A DNA stretch of 64,000 bases, taken from the NCBI GenBank assembly GCA_963812015.1, contig CAWETI010000002.1, positions 368,381-432,380 on the forward strand, written 5' to 3'. The position numbers and the translations under genes are program-made. The first letter of the stretch is position 1. Each line of letters starts with the position of its first letter. The notes beneath the pieces were generated by a model. It saw nothing but the letters and a program-made list of their open reading frames with translations. It had not been told where the DNA came from and did no database searches. This stretch comes from an uncultured delta proteobacterium. GTDB lineage: Bacteria > Desulfobacterota > Desulfobaccia > Desulfobaccales > 0-14-0-80-60-11. Below, piece after piece: positions 16,079-53,263 of this stretch.

Positions 16079-16156
16079 CCCCCTTTGAAAAAGGGGGATT
16101 AGGGGGATTTCAGGCTCTTATAAAAATCCCCCCTGCCCCCCTTTAGTAAAGGGGGG
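16079..16156. repeat. nested hairpin repeat (CCCCCTTTGAAAAAGGGGG / GGGGGATTT..AAATCCCCC / CCCCCCTTTAGTAAAGGGGGG)
   Basis: Three adjacent perfect or near-perfect short palindromes. A related CCCCCCTTT-TTC-AAAGGGGGG hairpin is at 47535-47556. Confidence 0.7.
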
Positions 16157-41380: not shown

Positions 41381-41632
41381 GCGCCTATGGGGTATCAGGT
41401 AAAAATCCAGTTTGAACGTAATTACGGGTAATTAAGGTTATAGCTTCCGGCCTTCCCGGTCCGACGGCAAGGGGCTAGGAGGGAAGCAGCCCCGGGGATC
41501 ACCGGTTCCCTGGCAGGTTTTATCCGGGCGCCAGGGACGATTCCAAGGGTCAATACGAGTAAAGGCAAGAGGCTTGGCCGGCACCAGGTGAGACTAAAAA
41601 GCGAAGCCTGAAGAGTGGGGTCCGATACCGAG

Positions 41633-44290
41633 ATGGAGAAGCATCATAGCTGCCTTAATACCCGGGCGATAATTGAGTATTTCCAAGAAAATGCGCCGGG
41701 AGAAGTGTATCGGCTCTTTACGGGTCTGGGCCCGGAAATTGAAGACCTGGCCAACCCCCAAGAATTTTTGATGGAGATTAATAATTGGGTGTCCAGCGAT
41801 GTGGTCACCAAGATGTTTGATAATGCCAAAGCCATAACCAAGGATGATGAAGTTGCATTTAAAATAGGGTTCGAATCGGCGGCAAGAAAAAAGTTAGGCT
41901 ATGTTCAGAGAATTATTATGTTTGCTCATAAAAACCCCAGACGTACTTTGAAAAGAGTTCAAGCTATTAATGATAAATTTAATAAAAATAAAATTATTGA
42001 ATTAATAGAAGCCAGAGGTGACAATGCGGTTATTCGGCTGCATTGGTTCAAAGAAATCCCCGGCACCATAGATTATTGTTTTTTTAATAAAGGGATATAC
42101 TCAGGGATTCCCACTATCTGGAACCTGCCGCCTGCTGATCTGGAAGAAACCAAATGTTATTTCAAAGGGGATGATTATTGCGAATACCATTTTAAATGGC
42201 AGAGAAATTTTTCTTTAAGGGAAGGCTTGTTGAGGCTGCTGGTGCCCTGGCGGGCGCTCAATTATACCATTGAGGAACTGGAGCGTGATAAAGAACTCCT
42301 GAAAAAGAAGTTTGATGAAATTCACCGATTAAATATTCAATTAAAAGAAAAGATCGATCAGCTCATCTGCATGCAGGAAACCAGCACCGCGGCGCTCTCG
42401 GTCCTTAACCTGGAGAAATTGCTCCAAGTAACGTTGCGACTGCTCATCAACTCGGCCAAACTGGATCGGGCCGGGATTCTGCTCCTGGACGAAAAAGGGG
42501 AGGTGCTGGAGCTGAACTATGCGGAGGGAATCGCCCCGGAACTTTTTGAACAGGTGCGGAACTATAAAATTTCCATTACGAAAGTGGATAACGTCATTGC
42601 CCGGGTAGCCATGACCGGCATCCCGGTGGTGATCCAAGATGTAGCCCGCAGCAAACTAAACATGAACAACGCCTTGATCCGATTTTTCAAGCCCAAGGCC
42701 TTCATTTTGGTCCCCCTCACGGTAAGGGGCAAGGTGATCGGGGTGCTCATGGCCGATCGAGTCCACGAGGATGCGATGATCACCGATGGCGACCGGGAGT
42801 TTATTGTGAGTTTCGCCAACCAGATTGCCATAGCCCTGGAAAATGCCGTGCTCTATCACAAGCTGGAGGTGTCGGAACGGAAATACCGTGAATTGGTGGA
42901 AAATGCTCACGAGGGGATCTGGATTATCGATGATAAAGGCCGGATCAAATTTGCCAACCGCAGGATGCGAGAGATTACCGGCCACGACACCCTGGAAAAT
43001 CACCATATTTCCGACCTGGCGGACCGGGACAATCAGAAGCGGTTAGCAGACATCATGGTTCAGAACCGGATGAACAATGTGGCGCAACAGGAATTGGATA
43101 TCATGTGCAAGGACGGGGGATCGGCCTCGGTTATCATGAGTTCGGTGCCATTGTTTGAAGACGGCCAGTTCGTGGGCGCTTTTGCCATGTTTAGTGACAT
43201 CACGGCATTGCGGGAAACGGAGGAGCGATTTCAGAAAATCTTTGAAGAAGCTGGCATCGGCATGGCTCTGGTGGATTTGACCGGCCACCTCTTGGATGCC
43301 AACCCGGCTTTCCTCAACATGCTGGGATATAATAAGAGTGAAGTAATCCGGAAATCTTTTAAGGATTTCATTCATCCGGAAGATATCCGGATAAGCGGCA
43401 GGCTGTTCAGGGAATTGGGGGAGGGTAAACGAGATTCCTACTCCCGGGAGAATCGTTACCTGCATAAAGAGAACCGGGTGGTCTGGGGCCAGGCGACCGT
43501 GTCCGTGCTCCGGGGCGCTGGAGGCGTACCGCAGTTTGCCATCGCCATGATCGCCGATATTACCGATCGGAAACAGGCAGAGGAAGACATTCGCACCTAT
43601 CAGGTGCAGCTCCAATCATTGGCCTCGGAATTGTCCCTGACCGAAGAGCGCGAACGGCGGCGCCTGGCTACAGATCTGCACGATCATATCGGTCAAGCCC
43701 TGGCCCTCTCCAAGATCAAACTGGGGGTACTCCAAAAAACCGTCATTGTGGAGAACCAGGCTAACTCTTTGGGCGAGGTGCGGGAGCTCATCGAGCAGAT
43801 GATCCAGGACACCAGATCCTTAACCTTTGAACTGAGCCTCCCGGTGCTTTACGAGCTTGGCTTTGAAGCGGCAGTGGAGTGGTACGCCAAGCATGTCCGG
43901 GCGCAGCACGGCATCAAGGTGGACGTCCAGCAAGACATGCTGCCCATTCCCATGGATGATGAAATCAAAGTCCTGCTTTTCCGTTCGGTGCGAGAGTTGA
44001 TGATTAATATTGTTAAGCATGCCCAGGCCCGCAATGCCCGGGTCACCATAAGGAGGGCAGGGGACGACGTCAACATCGAAGTGGAAGACGACGGGGTGGG
44101 AATTAAAGACGTCCGGCGAGATCAAAGGCTCAAAAGCAACGGCGGCTTTGGACTGTTCAGCATTAGAGAGCGCTTGCATTATCTTGGAGGCCAGGTGCAG
44201 GTGGAATCCGGGAAGACCCAGGGAACCAGGATTACTCTGATAGTACCCCTCCAACATGCCAGGAAGGCCCAATTGGAGATTGCGAGATGA
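41633..44290 (+). CDS. multidomain sensor histidine kinase: V4R-like N-terminal domain, coiled coil, GAF, two PAS, HisKA_3, HATPase_c
   Basis: N-domain ends ...LEETKCYFKGDDYCEYHF (V4R-type C..GD..C motif). GAF (VPLTVRGKVIGVLMAD). PAS (ENAHEGIWIID; FEEAGIGMALVD). H-box LATDLHDHIGQAL (HisKA_3/NarX type). G-boxes DDGVGI, GGFGL. GTG at 41615 is an alternative start. Confidence 0.9.
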   Translation: MEKHHSCLNTRAIIEYFQENAPGEVYRLFTGLGPEIEDLANPQEFLMEINNWVSSDVVTKMFDNAKAITKDDEVAFKIGFESAARKKLGYVQRIIMFAHKNPRRTLKRVQAINDKFNKNKIIELIEARGDNAVIRLHWFKEIPGTIDYCFFNKGIYSGIPTIWNLPPADLEETKCYFKGDDYCEYHFKWQRNFSLREGLLRLLVPWRALNYTIEELERDKELLKKKFDEIHRLNIQLKEKIDQLICMQETSTAALSVLNLEKLLQVTLRLLINSAKLDRAGILLLDEKGEVLELNYAEGIAPELFEQVRNYKISITKVDNVIARVAMTGIPVVIQDVARSKLNMNNALIRFFKPKAFILVPLTVRGKVIGVLMADRVHEDAMITDGDREFIVSFANQIAIALENAVLYHKLEVSERKYRELVENAHEGIWIIDDKGRIKFANRRMREITGHDTLENHHISDLADRDNQKRLADIMVQNRMNNVAQQELDIMCKDGGSASVIMSSVPLFEDGQFVGAFAMFSDITALRETEERFQKIFEEAGIGMALVDLTGHLLDANPAFLNMLGYNKSEVIRKSFKDFIHPEDIRISGRLFRELGEGKRDSYSRENRYLHKENRVVWGQATVSVLRGAGGVPQFAIAMIADITDRKQAEEDIRTYQVQLQSLASELSLTEERERRRLATDLHDHIGQALALSKIKLGVLQKTVIVENQANSLGEVRELIEQMIQDTRSLTFELSLPVLYELGFEAAVEWYAKHVRAQHGIKVDVQQDMLPIPMDDEIKVLLFRSVRELMINIVKHAQARNARVTIRRAGDDVNIEVEDDGVGIKDVRRDQRLKSNGGFGLFSIRERLHYLGGQVQVESGKTQGTRITLIVPLQHARKAQLEIAR

Positions 44291-44937
44291 TCAAGGTCAT
44301 ATTGGCGGACGACCACCAGATTGTGCGTCACGGGCTCCGCAGTCTACTGTCCGCGGAACCCGACATCGAGGTCGTGGGGGAAGCTGACAATGGGCGAGCC
44401 GTGGTCCGGATGGTCCAGGAACTCTCGCCTCAGGTGGTGATCATGGACATTTCCATGCCCGACCTGAATGGCATTGAAGCCACCCGCCAGATATTGAGCG
44501 ATACTACCGGGGTCAAGGTTATTGCCCTGTCGATGCATTCCGACAGTCTCTTCGTATTGAACATGTTCCAAGCGGGAGCTTCGGGGTACCTATTGAAAGA
44601 TTGCGCCCTGGAGGAGTTGGTCAAGGCCGTGCGCACGGTCATGAACCGCAAGATCTATCTCAGCCCCGGTATTTCCGATATCGTGATCAAAGACTTCGTC
44701 CTCGGGTGGTCTTCAACCGACTCCTCAGCCTATTCGATCCTGACCGCCAGGGAACGGGAAGTGCTGCAGTTAATGGCCGAAGGCAAGACCACCAATCAGA
44801 TCGCCGAAAACCTGTGCGTCAGTGTCAAGACGGTGGAGGCCCATCGCAAACAAATGATGAACAAGCTGGATATCCACAGCGTGGCCGAACTCACCAAGTA
44901 CGCCATACGCCAAGGACTGACTTCCCTGGAAGTTTGA
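44287..44937 (+). CDS. NarL/FixJ(LuxR)-family response regulator, paralogue 1
   Basis: REC (ADDH...IMDISMPDLNG...K) + LuxR HTH (LTAREREVLQLMAEGKTTNQIAENLCVSVKTVEAHR). ATGA overlap with the kinase. Confidence 0.95.
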   Translation: MIKVILADDHQIVRHGLRSLLSAEPDIEVVGEADNGRAVVRMVQELSPQVVIMDISMPDLNGIEATRQILSDTTGVKVIALSMHSDSLFVLNMFQAGASGYLLKDCALEELVKAVRTVMNRKIYLSPGISDIVIKDFVLGWSSTDSSAYSILTAREREVLQLMAEGKTTNQIAENLCVSVKTVEAHRKQMMNKLDIHSVAELTKYAIRQGLTSLEV

Positions 44938-45011
44938 GCCCGTCCCCAGCGCGGCGTTAGGAATTTCTCATCTCTAGAAGGTAAAAAATCAGGCATTGCG
45001 AACCGCAAAAT

Positions 45012-45024
45012 CAGGGAATCCCCG
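45012..45024. promoter_or_regulatory. CAGGGAATCCCCG imperfect inverted repeat, candidate operator upstream of regulator paralogue 2
   Basis: Related to the TAGGG-N3-4-CCCTA motif. Followed by CTAAGTGTAT as in the 45966-46002 region. Confidence 0.25.
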
Positions 45025-45231
45025 ACTAGAAGAGCCCTGGCACTAAGTGTATAAGATAATGAAGAAAATCTTAGGTGAGTGCTGAGGGGGCGAATCGGGG
45101 GAGAGGTATCCCTCGGTCCCGGCCAGGGAGAGGCCTAAAAGCGACTTCACCAACCCCAAGGCGGCCGACGTTGGCGCCAGGAAAGCATCGAGGGAATTAC
45201 CATGGGCCAAAGAAAAAGTCCATTTCATGGC

Positions 45232-45891
45232 ATGAACAGACCTATTAGGATCATCCTGGCGGATGACCACCAGATTGTGCGTCAGGGGCTGCGCATTCTC
45301 CTGCATGCGGAGTCTGACATGGAGATCATCGCCGAAGCCGATAACGGGCGCAAGGTGCTCAAACTGGCCCAGGAATTGTTGCCCGATGTTATCATTATGG
45401 ATCTGTCCATGCCCGAGCTGAATGGCATTGAGGCGACTCGGCAGATCTTGTCCGGGGCTCCTGATGTCAAGGTGGTGGCCCTATCGATGCATTCCGACAG
45501 CCTCTTCGTGCTCAACATGATCAAGGCCGGCGCCTCGGGCTATCTGCTGAAAGACTGCGCCCTGGAAGAACTGGTCAAAGCCATCCGTACCGTGGTCAAT
45601 CACAAAACCTACTTGAGTCCCGGGGTCTCGGACATCGTGATCCGGGATTTCGTGACCGGATGGCAGACTACGGGCACCTCGGCCTTTTCCGTCCTGTCGC
45701 CCCGAGAACGGGAAGTGCTGCAACTCATGGCGGAAGGCAAAACGACCAACCAAATTGCCGATGGCCTCTGTGTCAGCGTCAAGACCATAGAAGCCCACCG
45801 CAAACAGGTTATGACTAAATTGGGGATTCACAGTGTGGCTGAACTTACCAAGTACGCCATCCGCCAAGGATTGACCTCTTTGGAGGTCTAA
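45232..45891 (+). CDS. NarL/FixJ(LuxR)-family response regulator, paralogue 2
   Basis: Collinear with paralogue 1 over the full length, with long identical stretches (ALSMHSDSLFVLNM, AGASGYLLKDCALEELVKA, REREVLQLMAEGKTTNQIA, HSVAELTKYAIRQGLTSLEV). Confidence 0.95.
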   Translation: MNRPIRIILADDHQIVRQGLRILLHAESDMEIIAEADNGRKVLKLAQELLPDVIIMDLSMPELNGIEATRQILSGAPDVKVVALSMHSDSLFVLNMIKAGASGYLLKDCALEELVKAIRTVVNHKTYLSPGVSDIVIRDFVTGWQTTGTSAFSVLSPREREVLQLMAEGKTTNQIADGLCVSVKTIEAHRKQVMTKLGIHSVAELTKYAIRQGLTSLEV

Positions 45892-45965
45892 ACCTGCCTG
45901 AGGATCCCAGGCCGAAGCAGTACCTTTCTTGTAATTTCAAAAATAAGGTTTTTCGGAAATAAAAA

Positions 45966-46002
45966 TTAGGGATTCCCTAAGTGTATTTTAGGGGAATCCC
46001 TA
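45966..46002. promoter_or_regulatory. tandem pair of inverted repeats TTAGGGATTCCCTAA and TAGGGGAATCCCTA, candidate operator upstream of regulator paralogue 3
   Basis: Two perfect TAGGG/CCCTA palindromes 8 nt apart, about 115 nt upstream of the 46117 ATG. Confidence 0.4.
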
Positions 46003-46116
46003 TATTTTTATGCCCAGAGTGTTGTGCAAGCTGAGGGTGTTGGCCTGATGGCCGGAAAGTTGCCGCCTCGATCATATCCCGGCGCCACCAGGTCGACAGG
46101 TTGCCTTGGAGGCCGA

Positions 46117-46566
46117 ATGACCATCAAGATTGTTTTGGCGGATAATCACCCCATCGTACGCCATGGCCTGTCCTTGCTCCTGGCCGGGGAACCTGATATG
46201 TGCGTGGTGGGTGAAGCAGAAGATGGCGGCGCCACCATAAAGCTCACCCAAGAACTTGCCCCGGACGTGGTGATCATGGATATTTCCATGCCCGACTTAA
46301 ACGGGGTTGAAGCGACTCGCCAGATCTTGTCTCACTATCCCCAGGTCAAAGTAATCGCCCTGTCCATGCACTCCGATAGTCTTTTTGTCCTCAATATGCT
46401 CAACGCCGGAGCCTCAGGCTACCTGCTGAAGGATTGCGCCCTGGAAGAACTGGTCAAGGCCATTCGGACGGTGGTAACCCGGAAAATCTATCTCAGCCAC
46501 AGCTTATCTAACCTGCTGGTCGCGGATCTGGCCAATAAATTCTCTCTTGACAATTTTAAGCAATGA
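46117..46566 (+). CDS. receiver-domain-only protein: truncated third paralogue of the NarL-type regulators (HTH lost)
   Basis: REC domain collinear with paralogues 1/2 up to ...RKIYLS. It then diverges (HSLSNLLVADLANKFSLDNFKQ*) and stops, with no LuxR HTH. Confidence 0.85.
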   Translation: MTIKIVLADNHPIVRHGLSLLLAGEPDMCVVGEAEDGGATIKLTQELAPDVVIMDISMPDLNGVEATRQILSHYPQVKVIALSMHSDSLFVLNMLNAGASGYLLKDCALEELVKAIRTVVTRKIYLSHSLSNLLVADLANKFSLDNFKQ

Positions 46567-46721: not shown

Positions 46722-47435
46722 TCAGTAGCCCACCGGTAGCCGGAAGAGGATATCCGCCAGTTCCTCGGCGCATTGGAGGGGCTGCGCGGTTTCGCCATGC
46801 AGCTGCAAGCATTCGGACCACAAGCCCGGCAAATCCCGGCCGGCCGGTTCCCAGTCCACGTCCAGGGGAAAAAGGGGATTTGCCTGGCTGGCCGCCTCCC
46901 AGGCGGCAAAGTCGGCGAACCGGGGGTCCAGGCCCTGGGCCCGTTCGAAGGCGCTGTGGGCAATATCTTGGTTGAAACCGGTGCTCCAGAAGAACTCGAT
47001 GAGGCCCGGCACCGACTCGGCCAGGGGCACACCTTCCAGCATCTCCGGGCGGTAGCGCAGGCAAACCCGTTGGCTGCCGTGGTGACCCGGCTCCCCCCGG
47101 ACGTTGGGCAGGTTGGTATGGTACAGGGTATCTTCCAGCGAACTCAGGGCGCGGTTCCGGAAGAACATCTTCATTTCCTCGAAGCCGTCCCGGTAAAAGG
47201 TCAAGACATAGATGATGTAAGGGAAGGCCAGGCGGTGGGCCTGGTAATCGTTCGCCCCTTTTTTGCCGCCGCTGACCCGGAGAGTGCGGCATTGGGGGGG
47301 ATGTTCCACCACCAGGTAAAGCAGGTCTTTCTTCCGGCAGAGCCAGCGGGTGCCCGGGGGTAAGAGCGGCAACGGCGGCGGCATGACTCGGGCCACGTAA
47401 CGCAACACCGCGTCCAGGGGCGCCCGGCGGCTCAC
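46722..47435 (-). CDS. hypothetical protein, possible E2/UBC-fold-like protein (tentative)
   Basis: 237-aa ORF with balanced composition, whereas the overlapping alternative frames are R/P/G-rich. Helix, four-strand-like segment, then LYHTNLPNV-x11-RVCL, then helices. GTG start is uncertain. Confidence 0.55.
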   Translation of the reverse strand: MSRRAPLDAVLRYVARVMPPPLPLLPPGTRWLCRKKDLLYLVVEHPPQCRTLRVSGGKKGANDYQAHRLAFPYIIYVLTFYRDGFEEMKMFFRNRALSSLEDTLYHTNLPNVRGEPGHHGSQRVCLRYRPEMLEGVPLAESVPGLIEFFWSTGFNQDIAHSAFERAQGLDPRFADFAAWEAASQANPLFPLDVDWEPAGRDLPGLWSECLQLHGETAQPLQCAEELADILFRLPVGY

Positions 47436-47534
47436 CCGCCCCGGCCCGGCCCCAGCCTCCTCCTGAAGGATTATCTCACTGCCCTCAATGACGATCTTGT
47501 CTCGGATGGCTATTTTTTTCCTTGCTTCTTGATT

Positions 47535-47556
47535 CCCCCCTTTTTCAAAGGGGGGG
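47535..47556. repeat. CCCCCCTTT-TTC-AAAGGGGGG hairpin repeat
   Basis: Perfect 9-bp stem. Same family as the hairpins at 16079-16156. Confidence 0.7.
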
Positions 47557-47582
47557 AAAAACCCGCTGCATTGTATGCAATA

Positions 47583-47813
47583 TTAGGCTTTTTTCCCTTT
47601 GCCGATGATCGCACAAATGAAGTTATAAAGCTGGTTTTCGAGGTCTTCCATTGTTTCCCAAACGATATGGTTATATTGACGCGTATCGAAGTGAACGTCT
47701 TTAAGGTCGTCCTTTCTCACGCACCATATTACCGGCAATCCCAAACCAAGGGCATATCCTGCTTCAAAGTATACTCCGCGCCGCAAATTGGCCTATAGGA
47801 CAAATTTTTTCAT
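47583..47813 (-). pseudogene. decayed nucleoside 2-deoxyribosyltransferase-like / TIR-like (Rossmannoid) gene remnant
   Basis: ATG AAA AAA TTT GTC CTA TAG, then in the same frame ANLRRGVYFEAGYALGLGLPVIW...HFDTRQYNHIVWE (the YFE.GYA.GLG.PVI motif of the family). Only about 70 codons remain and there is no proper start. Visibly AT-rich. Confidence 0.5.
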
Positions 47814-47869
47814 TTAAATCTTCATTCATTTTTGTTTTGTACCTATCTCTTTTTCATAATTGATCCAGA

Positions 47870-49621
47870 TTAATCTTCCTCCCTCTCTTCCCCCGGTGCG
47901 GCCCAGGCCCAGACCCGGTCCGGCACAAAGCGCCGGGAGGAGCACTGGTTCAGGGCCAGCCGCTCCATGTGCCGCAGCACCTCCATCTGGTGGGGAGGCA
48001 GAAAGTCGTCAATCACCCGGTGGAAATCTGCCTGGCTGACTGCTTCCCGGCCCGCCAGGCGCGCCTCGCGGTAGGCCCGGAAGACCAGCTCCTCGATGTC
48101 CCCGCCGGTGATCAGCTCCGGGTGCCGAGCCTCCAAGTAGCGGGTGACGTCGGCAAAATCCGGAAAATCGCAGGCAATGTGGCTACGCTTCGCCACCACC
48201 GTGAAAATGTGACACTTTTCGGTGAAATCCGGCATGAAGAAGGGGATGCGTTCGCTGGAACGGCCTGAGCGCAGGTCCGCTTTGTCCAGGCGATCCGGGC
48301 GGTTGGTAATCCTGATCCACAGGACCTTGCCCTGGATGGCGGGGTCGCCCATAAAGTCAAAACGCATCTGCCGGAGGCGGTTACCCACCCCCGTATCGCC
48401 GGAGTACTCATCCCGGCTGTGCTCGCTCTGGTCGGCTTCGTCTTCCAGGACCACCACGGGGGTGAGACTGCGGAGAGTGGCGAGGGCCTTAAAAAAATTG
48501 CGTTCGCTTTCTCCCACCCACTTAGTCCGGGGATTGAGCAGCTTGACGAAATTAAAGCCCGCATCCCGGGCCAGGGCTTCCGCCAGGGCGGTTTTGCCCA
48601 CTCCCGGGGGCCCCATCAGGGTGATGCCCCGGGGGACCAGTTTGTGGTCGCCGGCATGGATGGCCTGGGCAATCTGGCTGAAGTAGGCCTTGATGGGTTC
48701 CAACCCGCCGATTTCCTCGAGGCCGAAGCGGGGTTCGATGACTTCGATGAGCCCCACCAGTTCCTGGCGGAGCAGATCCTTCTTTTTGCGGCGGACCATC
48801 TCCGGGGTGAGGGGGGCGCGCCGGGACTGGCGCAAGAGGGCCTGCAGCACCCTCAGGCTGAGGCCGGCCGCCAGGTTGGCCAATCCCTGGGTGGTCAGTT
48901 CCAGGCGGTAGGCGCCGGAAGACAAGAGATATTCGATAAAATGGAGGCGGTCCGTCTGGTCCGGCGGCGGCACTTCGATGATTTGGGCCCCATGGCGGCT
49001 GAGCAGCAGATTGGGGTTCAACTCGGCCAGATTGCCGGTGGTCAGGAAAATGAGATGGCCCTGCTCCACCAGTTCCCGCTGCCGGGCCCAGCGCAGCAAG
49101 GTCACCAGGGAGGCCCGGTCCGGCTCCCCCATGGAGCCCAGGTCCACCGCCGGCACGATGGTCTCGGCGTACTCCAGGATCAGGGCCAGGGGCTGGGTCA
49201 GGCCGCCCTGCTGGCACGGCGCGGTCATGACCCGCTCCGCCAGTTGGAGCACTTCCCGGGGACTTTGGGGCAGGGGTTTGGCAGAGGGCGGTTGCCCCAG
49301 GGCCCGCAAGGCCCGGGCCCGGACCCGGGAAACCTCTTCGGCGTCGTCCGCTTCCCGGGGGGGAGGCTCCTCGAGGGCCAGTCTGAAGGCATTTTCCCCC
49401 GGGGCGTCCCAGAACTCCAGCCCCAGGCCGAGATTATAGGAGACCACATGGTGGGTCTGGGCCAGCCATTGACCCAGAAAATGGCGAAACGGCAGGTAAG
49501 CCCCATTCACCCGGATATAATCGAAGACCTGCCCATGGAGGATAAAGAGGGCCGATTCGCCTTCCTGAAGGTGCTCCGCCAATTCTTGGGCCCATTCCGG
49601 GAGGTTTTGCCAGGGCCCCAT
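47870..49621 (-). CDS. classical-clade AAA+ ATPase with a degenerate (Walker-less) N-terminal half
   Basis: C-terminal module: Walker A GPPGVGKT, Walker B VVVLEDEAD, second region of homology ITNRPDRLDKADLRSGRSSERIPF. The N-terminal ~300 aa lack nucleotide motifs. GAGGAG RBS. Confidence 0.85.
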   Translation of the reverse strand: MGPWQNLPEWAQELAEHLQEGESALFILHGQVFDYIRVNGAYLPFRHFLGQWLAQTHHVVSYNLGLGLEFWDAPGENAFRLALEEPPPREADDAEEVSRVRARALRALGQPPSAKPLPQSPREVLQLAERVMTAPCQQGGLTQPLALILEYAETIVPAVDLGSMGEPDRASLVTLLRWARQRELVEQGHLIFLTTGNLAELNPNLLLSRHGAQIIEVPPPDQTDRLHFIEYLLSSGAYRLELTTQGLANLAAGLSLRVLQALLRQSRRAPLTPEMVRRKKKDLLRQELVGLIEVIEPRFGLEEIGGLEPIKAYFSQIAQAIHAGDHKLVPRGITLMGPPGVGKTALAEALARDAGFNFVKLLNPRTKWVGESERNFFKALATLRSLTPVVVLEDEADQSEHSRDEYSGDTGVGNRLRQMRFDFMGDPAIQGKVLWIRITNRPDRLDKADLRSGRSSERIPFFMPDFTEKCHIFTVVAKRSHIACDFPDFADVTRYLEARHPELITGGDIEELVFRAYREARLAGREAVSQADFHRVIDDFLPPHQMEVLRHMERLALNQCSSRRFVPDRVWAWAAPGEEREED

Positions 49622-49784: not shown

Positions 49785-50291
49785 TTACAGCAAGGGTTCG
49801 ATCAATTTCATGAAAACGGCTTTTTTCCGGGTGCCCTCGATCCTTTGGGCGATGTTGCCCTGCTTGTCGATGATTACGGTGGTGGGCACGACCGCGATGC
49901 TCCCATAGGCATCGCTCACCTTGTCATTGCCGATGAGCACCGGGTATTGCAGGCCCAATTGTTTCACCAGGAACCGGATTTGGGTAGGGTCGGAGCTCAG
50001 GGCGATCCCGAAGGTTTGCAGGCCCTTGCCCTTGAGTTCGTCATTGATCTTGCTCAGGTCCGGCATCTCATCCCGACACGGACCGCAAAAAAAGGTGAAA
50101 AAGTTGAGCACGACCACCTTGCCTTTGAACTGGCTGAGGGAGTAATCTTTGCCCGTGAGCACGTCTTTTAGGGTAAAGTCAGGGGCAGATTTTTCGGCCC
50201 CCCAGCCTGGAGACGCCAAGGCCAGGACGCAGACGGCTACCAGCAGCATCCGAGCGGTGGTCCAGGAAATGCGAAATGACTTTTGAGCCAT
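49785..50291 (-). CDS. TlpA/ResA-family periplasmic thiol:disulfide oxidoreductase
   Basis: Signal anchor plus thioredoxin fold with FCGPC active site. AAGGAGGG RBS before the ATG at 50291. Confidence 0.85.
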   Translation of the reverse strand: MAQKSFRISWTTARMLLVAVCVLALASPGWGAEKSAPDFTLKDVLTGKDYSLSQFKGKVVVLNFFTFFCGPCRDEMPDLSKINDELKGKGLQTFGIALSSDPTQIRFLVKQLGLQYPVLIGNDKVSDAYGSIAVVPTTVIIDKQGNIAQRIEGTRKKAVFMKLIEPLL

Positions 50292-50528
50292 TACAACCCT
50301 CCTTGCTCTGAGGATAAAGTGCCTCTTTTCTGCCTTAACCATATCAAAAAGGCCCCCAGCCTGCAATTTTTTACTCGGAGGAGAAAACCGGCGGCCTTCG
50401 CCCCTCTGGCCCTCAGAAATGGCCTGCCCGAAATTTTCTCCGGGTTGACATCTCTTACCCGCAATCTTACCTATTTTCTATGAGTGAGCTCATAAATGTC
50501 TAAAAACACCAGGAAGGAGTCGAAGCTT

Positions 50529-52615: not shown

Positions 52616-53263
52616 ATGAGCATCAAGATTCTGATTGTCGATGATCACCAGATCACCAGAGAGGGCATTCGCAGCATGCTGGAACGAGAACCAGACATGA
52701 AAGTTTTGGGAGAGGCTGAGGATGGTCGCTCTGCCACGAGAATGGCAAGGGAATTAGGCCCGGACATCATAGTGATGGATGTATGTATGCCTGAGATGAA
52801 CGGCATCTTGGCCACGAGCGTAATCATTGCCGAGTCCCCCAAGATAAAGGTGCTCGCCCTCTCTATGCTCGCAGATAGGCGATTTGTCTATAATATGTTG
52901 CGGGCTGGTGCGTCAGGGTATCTGATCAAGGATTGTTCTTTCAAGGAGTTGGTCCGAGCCATTCGCGTGGTGATGGCAAATAGAACTTACCTCAGCCCTG
53001 GAATAATGGATGTGGTAGTGAAAGACTACGTGAAGCCTTCGGCCTATTCCGATTCGCCATCTTCCTCCAATTTAACTATCCGCGAAAGTGAAGTGTTGCA
53101 GATGGTCGCTGAAGGGCATTCTACCTCTCAAATTGCCAAGCGTCTGCATTTGAGCGTAAAGACCATAGAGACTCATCGGCAAAAACTTATCGCAAAAATA
53201 AATGCCAAAGGCATTGCCGGGCTCACCAAATATGCCATTCGGGAGGGATTGACTTCTGCATGA
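52616..53263 (+). CDS. NarL/FixJ(LuxR)-family response regulator (fourth, more divergent paralogue)
   Basis: REC + LuxR HTH (LTIRESEVLQMVAEGHSTSQIAKRLHLSVKTIETHR). AGGGAGG RBS. Confidence 0.95.
   Translation: MSIKILIVDDHQITREGIRSMLEREPDMKVLGEAEDGRSATRMARELGPDIIVMDVCMPEMNGILATSVIIAESPKIKVLALSMLADRRFVYNMLRAGASGYLIKDCSFKELVRAIRVVMANRTYLSPGIMDVVVKDYVKPSAYSDSPSSSNLTIRESEVLQMVAEGHSTSQIAKRLHLSVKTIETHRQKLIAKINAKGIAGLTKYAIREGLTSA

Follow-up and report, generated by a model that had tools for sequence, protein, structure and literature searches.

Bacterial pathways in which E1 and E2 proteins act on a ubiquitin-like protein (Ubl) have been studied experimentally in CBASS (Cap2), Bil and Bub, and all of them serve phage defence (PMC11601596, PMC10557695). 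In Bil, the Ubl BilA has a conserved C-terminal glycine followed by a few removable residues (PMC10557695), and Bub relies on serine/oxyester chemistry (PMC11601596). The term "AAA" does not occur in the Bil paper (PMC10557695), and Bil, Bub and CBASS have not been described with an AAA+ unfoldase. Type 6d operons combine Ubl, JAB, E1-like and E2-like genes, the E2-like protein being without the classical histidine (Iyer, Burroughs & Aravind, 2006, PMC1779556). Here, we analyse a gene on the minus strand of a 64,000-nucleotide stretch of Desulfobaccales DNA (contig CAWETI010000002.1; the window), for which the original prediction, made from the letters alone, had proposed an E2/UBC-like protein. 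That proposal is supported through homology to Prok-E2_D and PRTRC_B and through a conserved cysteine. The protein is rather probably a Cys-dependent E2-type Ubl carrier of 261 aa that is initiated at an AUC codon and paired with an upstream ATPase resembling the D2 domains of Cdc48 and VAT.

Kinship with prokaryotic E2 family D

The gene was called by an open reading frame (ORF) finder at 46722..47435 on the minus strand, as a protein of 237 aa with a GTG start. This ORF and all the segments quoted in the original prediction (APLDAVLRYVARV, DLLYLVVEH, CRTLRVS, HRLAFPYIIYVLTFY, EEMKMFFRN and LYHTNLPNVRGEPGHHGSQRVCLRY) were found in the translation, and the gene is real, as both homologues and a wobble pattern at third codon positions are seen. 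In the numbering used below, residues are counted from the GTG unless the ATC codon is named. The features of the gene that carry the argument are the following:

46722..47507, minus strand: E2-like gene as re-modelled here, 261 codons from ATC plus the stop codon
47061..47063, minus strand: codon of Cys125 (Cys149 from ATC), the predicted catalytic cysteine, invariant in alignment A4
47103..47105, minus strand: codon of Asn111 (Asn135 from ATC) in the NLxN[VI] motif, putative counterpart of the HPN asparagine, 14 residues before the cysteine

A search of a collection of 5.8 billion proteins returned 121 matches, including the window's own protein. Most of them are 66–88% identical and four are about 41–44% identical, and where the organism is named they come from metagenome-assembled genomes (MAGs) of Desulfobaccales or "Deltaproteobacteria". 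All the named homologues are recorded as "hypothetical protein", and a Pfam domain is on record in none. By profile search, run exhaustively against 1.84 billion representatives at 50% identity, the family grows to 1,836 relatives at E <= 1e-3 (1,073 at E <= 1e-10), many of which are C-terminal domains within proteins of 450–790 aa. In IMG/VR viral contigs, in a scan limited to two peptide patterns, no relative was found.

The link to described E2 families comes from these relatives. When 123 family representatives were scanned one by one, 28 matched Prok-E2_D (PF14460) at E <= 0.01, with a best E value of 7e-8, and 6 matched PRTRC_B (NCBIfam); representative P0152, with 32.7 bits against a gathering score of 25, was the sole one to pass the Prok-E2_D gathering score. 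A confident hit to an unrelated family had been named in the original prediction as a result that would speak against it, and beyond Prok-E2_D and PRTRC_B no such family recurs among the 123. BLASTP pairs the window protein with P0395, a protein of 226 aa that has PF14460 on record, at 31% identity across 233 residues (E 3e-32); NLPNV then faces NLANV, RVCL faces EICT and the cysteines are aligned. Likewise, the Bacillus mycoides "prokaryotic E2 ligase family D protein" matches the family profile A4 (hhalign 94.5%, E 7.4e-8) in a register that joins LPxG, AFPY, NV, VC and FWxSxFNxD, so that Asn111 lines up with the NV motif and the cysteines correspond. The Bacillus gene lies on a plasmid, in a cassette with MPN/JAB, ThiF and small ORFs of 56 and 133 aa, and this cassette is apparently of type 6d, judging from its B. 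cereus-group host and its gene set. By sequence homology, the window protein is a member of the E2 superfamily on the Prok-E2_D/PRTRC_B side, outside the range of the curated models, and its branch of the prokaryotic E2 family D lineage is large and has no name yet. Profile matches in the PDB consisted of a DsbA segment at chance level (E 0.0022) and weak 8-oxoguanine glycosylase matches, and all were dismissed as noise. In a tblastn search of plasmids with the E1 for PRTRC cassettes, distant ThiF genes only were recovered.

The conservation checks asked for in the original prediction came out in its favour. Cys125 is invariant in A4, an alignment of 27 diverse sequences at 25–40% identity, and present in 134 of 153 representatives, and eight of those without it are gaps or fragments. 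All the paralogues that were checked retain the cysteine, except one copy at locus L076, in which the cysteine column is an alignment gap. Asn111 of the N-x-V motif is likewise found in 134 of 153 representatives (about 88%), with histidine in 14. The histidine of the HPN motif is not conserved in the family. In ATC numbering, the residues that are invariant in A4 are P50, P96, L133, C149, F178, W203, F213 and W219.

Two AlphaFold2 models were built from different alignments and reached a predicted local distance difference test (pLDDT) score of 83.1 with a predicted template modelling (pTM) score of 0.72, and a pLDDT of 87.0 with a pTM of 0.76. In both, a three-stranded N-terminal beta unit is followed by the helix LDAVLRYVARV, six antiparallel strands, a 45-residue loop that holds the asparagine and the cysteine, and six helices. 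Of the layout first proposed, the helix at LDAVLRYVARV and the order of the elements hold in the models, and the count of four strands has to be corrected to six. When the models were compared with the PDB by Foldseek, eukaryotic E2s were the best-ranked recognisable fold for both, at non-significant scores, with 12–13 of the top 50 matches. These E2s comprise UBE2S, UbcH7, E2-C, Rad6, UBE2D3, Ubc13, Ubc9 and UBE2L6, with template modelling (TM) scores, normalised to the E2, of 0.29–0.39 and best values of 0.36–0.39. Such an enrichment would fit an E2 fold, and it is suggestive only and non-decisive by itself. Of the three outcomes that the original prediction had named as speaking against it, none was observed.

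Genes around the family

Gene neighbourhoods were compared in 71 genome loci and several metagenome loci, which were annotated by phmmer with the window proteins and the proteins of one Methylomirabilota locus as queries. Upstream of the E2-like gene, the window holds the following genes:

47870..49621, minus strand: AAA+ ATPase, 583 aa, Pfam AAA (PF00004) at 2.4e-22, the conserved partner of the E2-like gene
49785..50366, minus strand: AhpC/TSA-type redoxin with an N-terminal hydrophobic segment, first gene of the Redoxin-AAA-E2 string
47583..47786, minus strand: NDT/TIR-like remnant, C-terminal 67 aa, between the ATPase and E2-like genes

The order Redoxin-AAA-E2 is kept in 36 of the 38 Desulfobaccales loci with enough flanking sequence and is followed, as in the window, by LuxR-type response regulators. 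Other syntenic genes across Desulfobaccales are an FMN reductase, rpoZ and two-component regulators, and the locus looks vertically inherited in this order.

In the PDB, residues 294–556 of the ATPase come closest to the D2 domains of VAT, p97 and Cdc48 (E 7.8e-43). The protein has a single ATPase domain, in which GPPGVGKT and KWVGESE can be read, and we take the latter to resemble pore loop 1 of Cdc48. Its N-terminal region of about 290–300 aa has no family match, and PADLOC gave only weak generic AAA matches (IetA at 1.8e-8, TRIP13 at 2e-5). Judged from these matches, the neighbouring ATPase is Cdc48-like but is not a Cdc48 orthologue. It is 49.6% identical to the ATPase of an operon in Methylomirabilota (NC10), whose E2-like protein is an orthologue 41% identical to that of the window.

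It is in this Methylomirabilota operon that the remaining components of a conjugation pathway stand beside the pair. A tight AAA-E2-JAB-E1-Ubl string was found at L004, L065, L066 and L068–L072, and AAA-E2-JAB-E1, with the Ubl undetected, at L049, L051, L057 and L058; loci L005, L056, L061, L070 and L074 end at contig ends. Besides the E2-like gene, the operon encodes:

AAA+ ATPase, 560–586 aa
JAB protein with an intact HSHx7Sx2D motif, matching Prok-JAB (8e-5) and PRTRC_A (3e-10)
E1 of 237 aa, matching ThiF (9e-17) and PRTRC_ThiF (1e-17)
Ubl of about 90 aa ending in LEFVRLAGEKG, with weak similarity to SAMP2/ThiS

Related arrangements occur in other lineages. A gammaproteobacterial MAG (L076, 4302..12344) has its ATPase gene amid four E2-like paralogues, at least three of which retain the cysteine, with genes for JAB, E1 and Ubl after them. 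In a Paceibacterota genome (L081, 5976..13249, on a 742-kb contig), genes for an E2-like protein of 462 aa, a PRTRC_A-like JAB protein (5e-11), a ThiF and a ThiS-like protein lie between dnaK and dnaJ, downstream of grpE. A second type of Methylomirabilota locus, which has no local E1, places two E2-like paralogues and a Ubl with MoxR-type AAA+ and VWA genes (L002, 7788..12496; L052, 6619..14120; L050, L055, L059, L063 and L064), and the L052 variant adds alpha/beta-hydrolase, TPR and HEPN genes. One MAG (JBHIAH01) has both this second type of locus and a complete AAA-E2-JAB-E1-Ubl operon.

In Desulfobaccales itself, an orthologous Ubl gene (E 1e-16 to 1e-24) was detected on the opposite strand, at a distance of 3–9 kb, for 19 of the 29 loci. 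It encodes 93 aa with the LEFVRLAGEKG end, and in many loci a few extra residues precede the stop codon. Where genes had been called (L077 and L078), it belongs to a string of FMN reductase, FlK, a 270-aa protein, Ubl and rpoZ, which is transcribed divergently from Redoxin-AAA-E2; the Ubl region concerned is 4228..5442 in L077 and 4679..4960 in L037, on the minus strand in both, with counterparts in about 19 other Desulfobaccales loci. Genes for proteins of 270 and 317 aa beside the Desulfobaccales Ubl have no Pfam or NCBIfam match, and the conserved 270-aa protein could be a further component of the system. An ORF of 229 aa in L037 (5146..5835) was considered as a hidden E1 or JAB and rejected, as its translation looks spurious and has no family match.

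The spacer between the AAA and E2-like genes (47508..47869 in the window; compared in L001–L046) is an insertion hot spot. Among 36 loci, it holds no insert in 18, a DUF559 (Vsr-like nuclease) gene in 7, an NDT-like gene together with DUF559 in 5, an NDT-like gene only in 1 and other inserts, of 0.8–1.6 kb, in 5; two DUF559 copies are present in L028 and L038. Because these inserts are variable and often absent, they are not regarded as part of the system. The remnant in the window has weak matches to Pfam Nuc_deoxyrib_tr (E 0.036) and to a PADLOC TIR effector (1.9e-4), and its GC content is 0.49–0.51, against 0.62–0.68 in the flanking genes. Full-length copies of about 315 aa stand at the same position in L006, L007, L010, L011, L013, L025 and L036, with a shorter match in L031; the full protein has a zinc-ribbon-like N-terminal part and an NDT/TIR-like C-terminus, and about 750 bp of its gene were lost in the window.

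On the other side of the E2-like gene, a GAF/PAS histidine kinase (41615..44290) is followed downstream by three tandem paralogues of NarL/LuxR-type response regulators (44287..46566). A receiver domain, apparently without a C-terminal helix-turn-helix, is present in the third (46024..46566), and a fourth paralogue is at 52616..53263. Regulators of this type flank the E2-like gene in most Desulfobaccales loci. In several long-read MAGs (L014, L030, L044 and L045), the ATPase or E2-like gene is broken into several ORFs, which are probably assembly indel errors and not pseudogenes.

Start codon and 5′ leader

The start of the gene had been flagged as odd in the original prediction, and the suspicion was well placed, as the actual start appears to lie upstream of the GTG. 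The elements concerned are:

47505..47507, minus strand: candidate non-canonical start codon ATC (AUC), from comparative sequence analysis
47433..47435, minus strand: GTG picked by ORF finders, more likely an internal valine codon and possibly a secondary start
47519..47523, minus strand: Shine-Dalgarno-like AAGGA, 11 nt upstream of the ATC
47535..47556, minus strand: C7-TTTGAAAAA-G6 hairpin in the 5′ leader, a repeat with two other copies in the window

Upstream of the GTG, the frame is open for 49 more sense codons (YCIQCSGFF...KKIAIRDKIVIEGSEIILQEEAGAGPGR; in full, YCIQCSGFFPPFEKGGNQEARKKIAIRDKIVIEGSEIILQEEAGAGPGR) without ATG, GTG or TTG, and it is bounded, as had been described, by the in-frame stop codon of the NDT-like remnant. 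The repeat hairpin reported inside this stretch corresponds to the C7/G6 hairpin listed above. Across the Desulfobaccales loci, the codon aligned with 47507..47505 is ATC in 38, ATT in 4 and ATA in 2, that is, ATH in 44 of 45, and the only other locus is a frameshifted copy. In most of the 45 loci, the stretch from the preceding stop codon to the ATH is free of in-frame ATG, GTG and TTG codons, and in L023, L038, L014, L044 and L006 an in-frame stop codon stands just 1–4 codons upstream of it. The mean entropy at codon positions 1, 2 and 3 is 0.60, 0.43 and 1.13 bits over the 16 codons from the ATH and 1.60, 1.53 and 1.55 bits over the 16 codons before it, and because of this switch the coding constraint is placed as beginning at the ATH or one codon earlier. 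Most loci have a GGA or AGG at 8–11 nt before the ATH.

The segment between the ATH and the GTG is thus coding, and it also has counterparts in distant proteins. The motif I-x-I-x-G-x-x-[VI]-x-L is kept from Desulfobaccales to the most distant stand-alone relatives, in which a normal ATG stands a few codons before it (MERIEIEG, MDEVIEIEG, METIIQIEG), and AlphaFold models the N-terminal extension as a beta-sheet packed on the core, with a pLDDT of 85–87. The GTG position carries GTG in 39 of the 45 loci and ATA, GTA, GTT or ATC in six. Since the 24 codons before the GTG carry coding constraint and the GTG itself is replaced in six loci, it is not the universal start, and the best gene model is likely to be the AUC-initiated one of 261 aa at 46722..47507, as read from the comparison of loci. 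Gene callers disagree on the length of the protein (about 237 to 295 aa in the full-length calls, P0002–P0092), and this conflict arises because the nearest chance ATG, GTG or TTG is picked when the start is non-canonical.

Readthrough from the upstream gene, or a fusion with it, was considered and rejected, since both that gene and its frame vary (it is out of frame in L016 and L019) and several loci have more than one stop codon in the interval before the E2-like gene. In L008 and L004, the ATPase stop codon is in frame with the E2-like gene. A C5-7/G5-7 hairpin is found upstream of the ATH in 26 of the 45 loci, regardless of the upstream gene, at a distance of 23–43 nt except in L043, where it is 69 nt. 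The idea that the leader holds a known RNA element was also discarded, as there was no Rfam match and the fold of the hairpin is unremarkable (z = -1.8). In the window, besides the copy at 47535..47556, two others lie at 16079..16097 and 16137..16155, with 0.19 expected by chance. It is a dispersed repeat of C5-7, a T-rich loop and G5-7 (CCCCCTTTTTCAAAGGGGG), two copies of which stand 40 nt apart in one intergenic region, and it may be a repetitive extragenic palindromic (REP)-like element.

Mechanism, alternatives and comparison with known systems

In the mechanism that we infer, which takes in catalysis, delivery to the ATPase, protein quality control as the function and an effect of the AUC codon, a ThiF-type E1 would adenylate the C-terminal glycine of the Ubl of about 90 aa ending in LEFVRLAGEKG. 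Cys125 would then take over the Ubl in a thioester bond, Asn111 in the NLxNV loop acting as the HPN asparagine does, and the Ubl would be moved onto target proteins. The AAA+ ring would engage the tagged proteins and unfold or extract them, and the JAB peptidase would mature and recycle the Ubl. Because the window has none of the E1, JAB and Ubl genes, these components would, in this genome, act in trans or have been lost. The weak AUC start, behind AAGGA and the G/C hairpin, probably keeps the E2 low or regulated. A broader reading, which we put forward tentatively and hold to be possible, makes this a housekeeping system in which Ubl tagging and a Cdc48-like segregase work together across several phyla, with the GEKG Ubl loaded by the Prok-E2_D-type E2 onto damaged or regulated proteins, a dedicated single-ring AAA+ unfoldase processing these afterwards and, in Desulfobaccales, the dosage of the E2 kept low through the proposed AUC start of the clade. 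Methylomirabilota, Desulfobaccales and some Gammaproteobacteria would share this arrangement, and in Paceibacterota DnaK/DnaJ would replace the ATPase; this distribution is offered with the same reserve.

Several observations weigh against the Cys-dependent carrier and its pairing with the ATPase. The window protein, scanned in versions of 237, 263 and 286 aa against Pfam and NCBIfam, and also compared with PADLOC, had no match at E <= 1. The Asn-to-Cys spacing, rightly described in the original prediction as longer than in eukaryotic E2s, is 14 residues against about 8, the strands modelled are six and not four, and Foldseek found nothing in the PDB at E <= 1e-3 for either model (E >= 0.19, TM <= 0.39). 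The statement that no E1, Ubl or JAB gene is nearby is true of the whole 64-kb window by tblastn, and neither E1 nor JAB was detected within 10 kb in any of 45 Desulfobaccales loci; this is offset by the complete operons around orthologues elsewhere. In a protein search with the Methylomirabilota E1, the best 120 matches were saturated by Methylomirabilota and are uninformative on a Desulfobaccales E1. The connection between Ubl tagging and the ATPase is drawn from gene neighbourhood, and a literature search returned no biochemical evidence for members of this branch, Prok-E2_D or PRTRC. As for the start, AUC initiation is deduced from comparative sequence, and the GTG, present in 39 of 45 loci, could serve as a second start.

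That the Desulfobaccales protein is instead a relic, serving as a non-catalytic adaptor or substrate-recognition subunit of the ATPase in a UEV/RWD-like reuse of the E2 fold, is unlikely. It would suit the AAA-E2 pair being the sole invariant core of the locus, the lack of E1 and JAB within 10 kb of the 45 loci and in the window, and the absence of the Ubl gene from the window; but Cys125, Asn111 and the whole cysteine loop are conserved throughout Desulfobaccales, 19 of 29 loci retain, within a few kb, a Ubl whose LEFVRLAGEKG end is intact, and the C-terminal extensions of the Ubl in many of these loci would need trimming by a peptidase. Action in trans is made plausible by L047 and L065, which come from one Methylomirabilota MAG and combine an E2/Ubl locus without E1 with a complete operon elsewhere. 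An anti-phage or conflict function like that of CBASS Cap2/Cap3, Bil and Bub, in which the E2 of the AAA-E2 pair, joined by Ubl, E1 and JAB at loci that have them, would attach tags to phage or host proteins in the course of an infection, is about as improbable as a relic, even though phage defence is the role of every bacterial E1/E2/Ubl system characterised so far (PMC11601596, PMC10557695). A plasmid carries the canonical Prok-E2_D cassette, a TIR gene lies near the L001 locus and a HEPN gene in L052, and the AAA-to-E2 spacer repeatedly has defence-like small genes, NDT/TIR-like and DUF559 nuclease; these inserts vary, however, and are absent in 18 of 36 loci. There is also no PADLOC model for the E2-like protein, the ATPase matches only generic AAA models, the patterns used in IMG/VR viral contigs found no relative, the synteny with ordinary genes across an order-level clade looks vertical, and the Paceibacterota cassette sits between dnaK and dnaJ. 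Proteostasis is tentatively favoured over defence, because the family adjoins AAA+, MoxR/VWA and Hsp70 genes, looks vertically inherited and syntenic in Desulfobaccales, and has no PADLOC match and, with the two patterns scanned, no relative in viral contigs.

There is a small chance, slighter than for either of these, that the GTG start at 47435 and the protein of 237 aa are correct, the conservation upstream being owed, for instance, to a short peptide encoded there or to an RNA element. In the bacteria studied so far, AUC initiates very poorly, the GTG is mostly kept and preceded by a G-rich run, and several database entries are called at 237 aa. Each of these points is met by another, as the 24 upstream codons show the coding wobble that fades further upstream, six loci have ATA, GTA, GTT or ATC instead of the GTG, many clades, Methylomirabilota among them, have a normal ATG ahead of the I-x-I-x-G hairpin, and the upstream segment is modelled as a beta-sheet on the rest of the protein. 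Least probable is an unrelated cysteine enzyme or binding protein with a superficial resemblance to E2s. The missing direct match to a curated model, the lack of a significant structural match and the chance-level DsbA segment as the only PDB profile match would agree with such a protein, but the links to Prok-E2_D and PRTRC_B are consistent and significant with the cysteine aligned. In operons that also encode a PRTRC_A-like JAB, a ThiF of PRTRC type and a Ubl, the gene takes the place of the E2, and two independent models both rank E2s first among their weak fold matches.

Taking the protein as a Cys-dependent Ubl carrier, its nearest described relatives are Prok-E2_D (PF14460) and PRTRC_B (TIGR03737), with which it shares a homologous core, an aligned cysteine and the lack of the HPN histidine. 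PRTRC-like partners accompany its relatives: a JAB similar to PRTRC_A, a ThiF of PRTRC type and a small beta-grasp protein. In contrast to these families, the window family has an extra three-stranded N-terminal beta unit and a longer C-terminal helical part with an invariant W...F.L...W, and the window locus is chromosomal and syntenic, not carried by a plasmid or an integrative and conjugative element, with a Cdc48-D2-like ATPase as partner. What can be recognised of the PRTRC cassette, and in relatives only, amounts to the A-like (JAB), B-like (E2) and ThiF-like parts; no ParB-like gene was seen in the annotated loci, and since both ParB and a mobile-element context are missing, the locus is not a PRTRC cassette.

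With BilABCD (types I and II), Bub (6E) and CBASS Cap2/Cap3, the family shares the logic of Ubl, E1, E2 and JAB, and in many loci its Ubl has, like BilA, a C-terminal glycine followed by a few removable residues. It differs from them in belonging to another E2 family, in having a short single-domain ThiF E1 of about 237 aa where those systems use a multidomain E1 or an E1-E2 fusion, in its conserved and predicted catalytic cysteine in place of the Bub chemistry, and in its setting, as those systems sit in defence contexts. On the grounds of E2 family, E1 architecture and a chemistry that would be Cys-based, the locus is not assigned to Bil, Bub or CBASS. In the literature search, no E1/E2/JAB/Ubl cassette with a Cdc48-like ATPase or within a dnaK operon was found, and an earlier mention is possible.

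The ATPase shares with eukaryotic Cdc48/p97 and archaeal VAT the D2-like domain and the pore-loop-like KWVGESE motif, and it appears, like ubiquitin-directed Cdc48/p97, to be genetically coupled to a Ubl-conjugation set. Unlike Cdc48 and VAT, it has one ATPase domain and not two, its N-terminal region of about 290 aa belongs to no known family, and, unlike for Cdc48, neither Ufd1/Npl4-like adaptor genes nor proteasome genes lie nearby. The Pup-Mpa-proteasome system of Actinobacteria likewise links a small tag to a classical-clade AAA+ unfoldase, which may be seen as an analogy; Pup is disordered and is ligated by the glutamine-synthetase-like PafA without E1 or E2, and the tagging parts are non-homologous. 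With regard to the start codon, E. coli infC, which encodes IF3, and pcnB have AUU start codons. The conserved AUH start of the present gene recalls them and would give weak, possibly IF3-sensitive initiation, but the codon is mostly AUC and the gene is unrelated. An AUC, AUU or AUA start in 44 of 45 loci would be an unusually clean natural case of non-canonical initiation.

In essence, the family links a Cys E2, a ThiF E1, a JAB protein and a Ubl with a Cdc48-D2-like ATPase in three lineages; the partners are MoxR/VWA genes at the second locus type and DnaK/DnaJ/GrpE in a Paceibacterota genome. If the functional link is true, a "tag, then unfold" form of quality control with true E1/E2 chemistry exists in bacteria, and the compact five-gene operon of Methylomirabilota could be rebuilt in vitro, which bears on how ubiquitin signalling became coupled to Cdc48-type machines. 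Should the housekeeping reading hold as well, the system would parallel the ubiquitin-p97 axis of eukaryotes and might be ancestral to it, with a role other than the phage defence served by Bil, Bub and CBASS.

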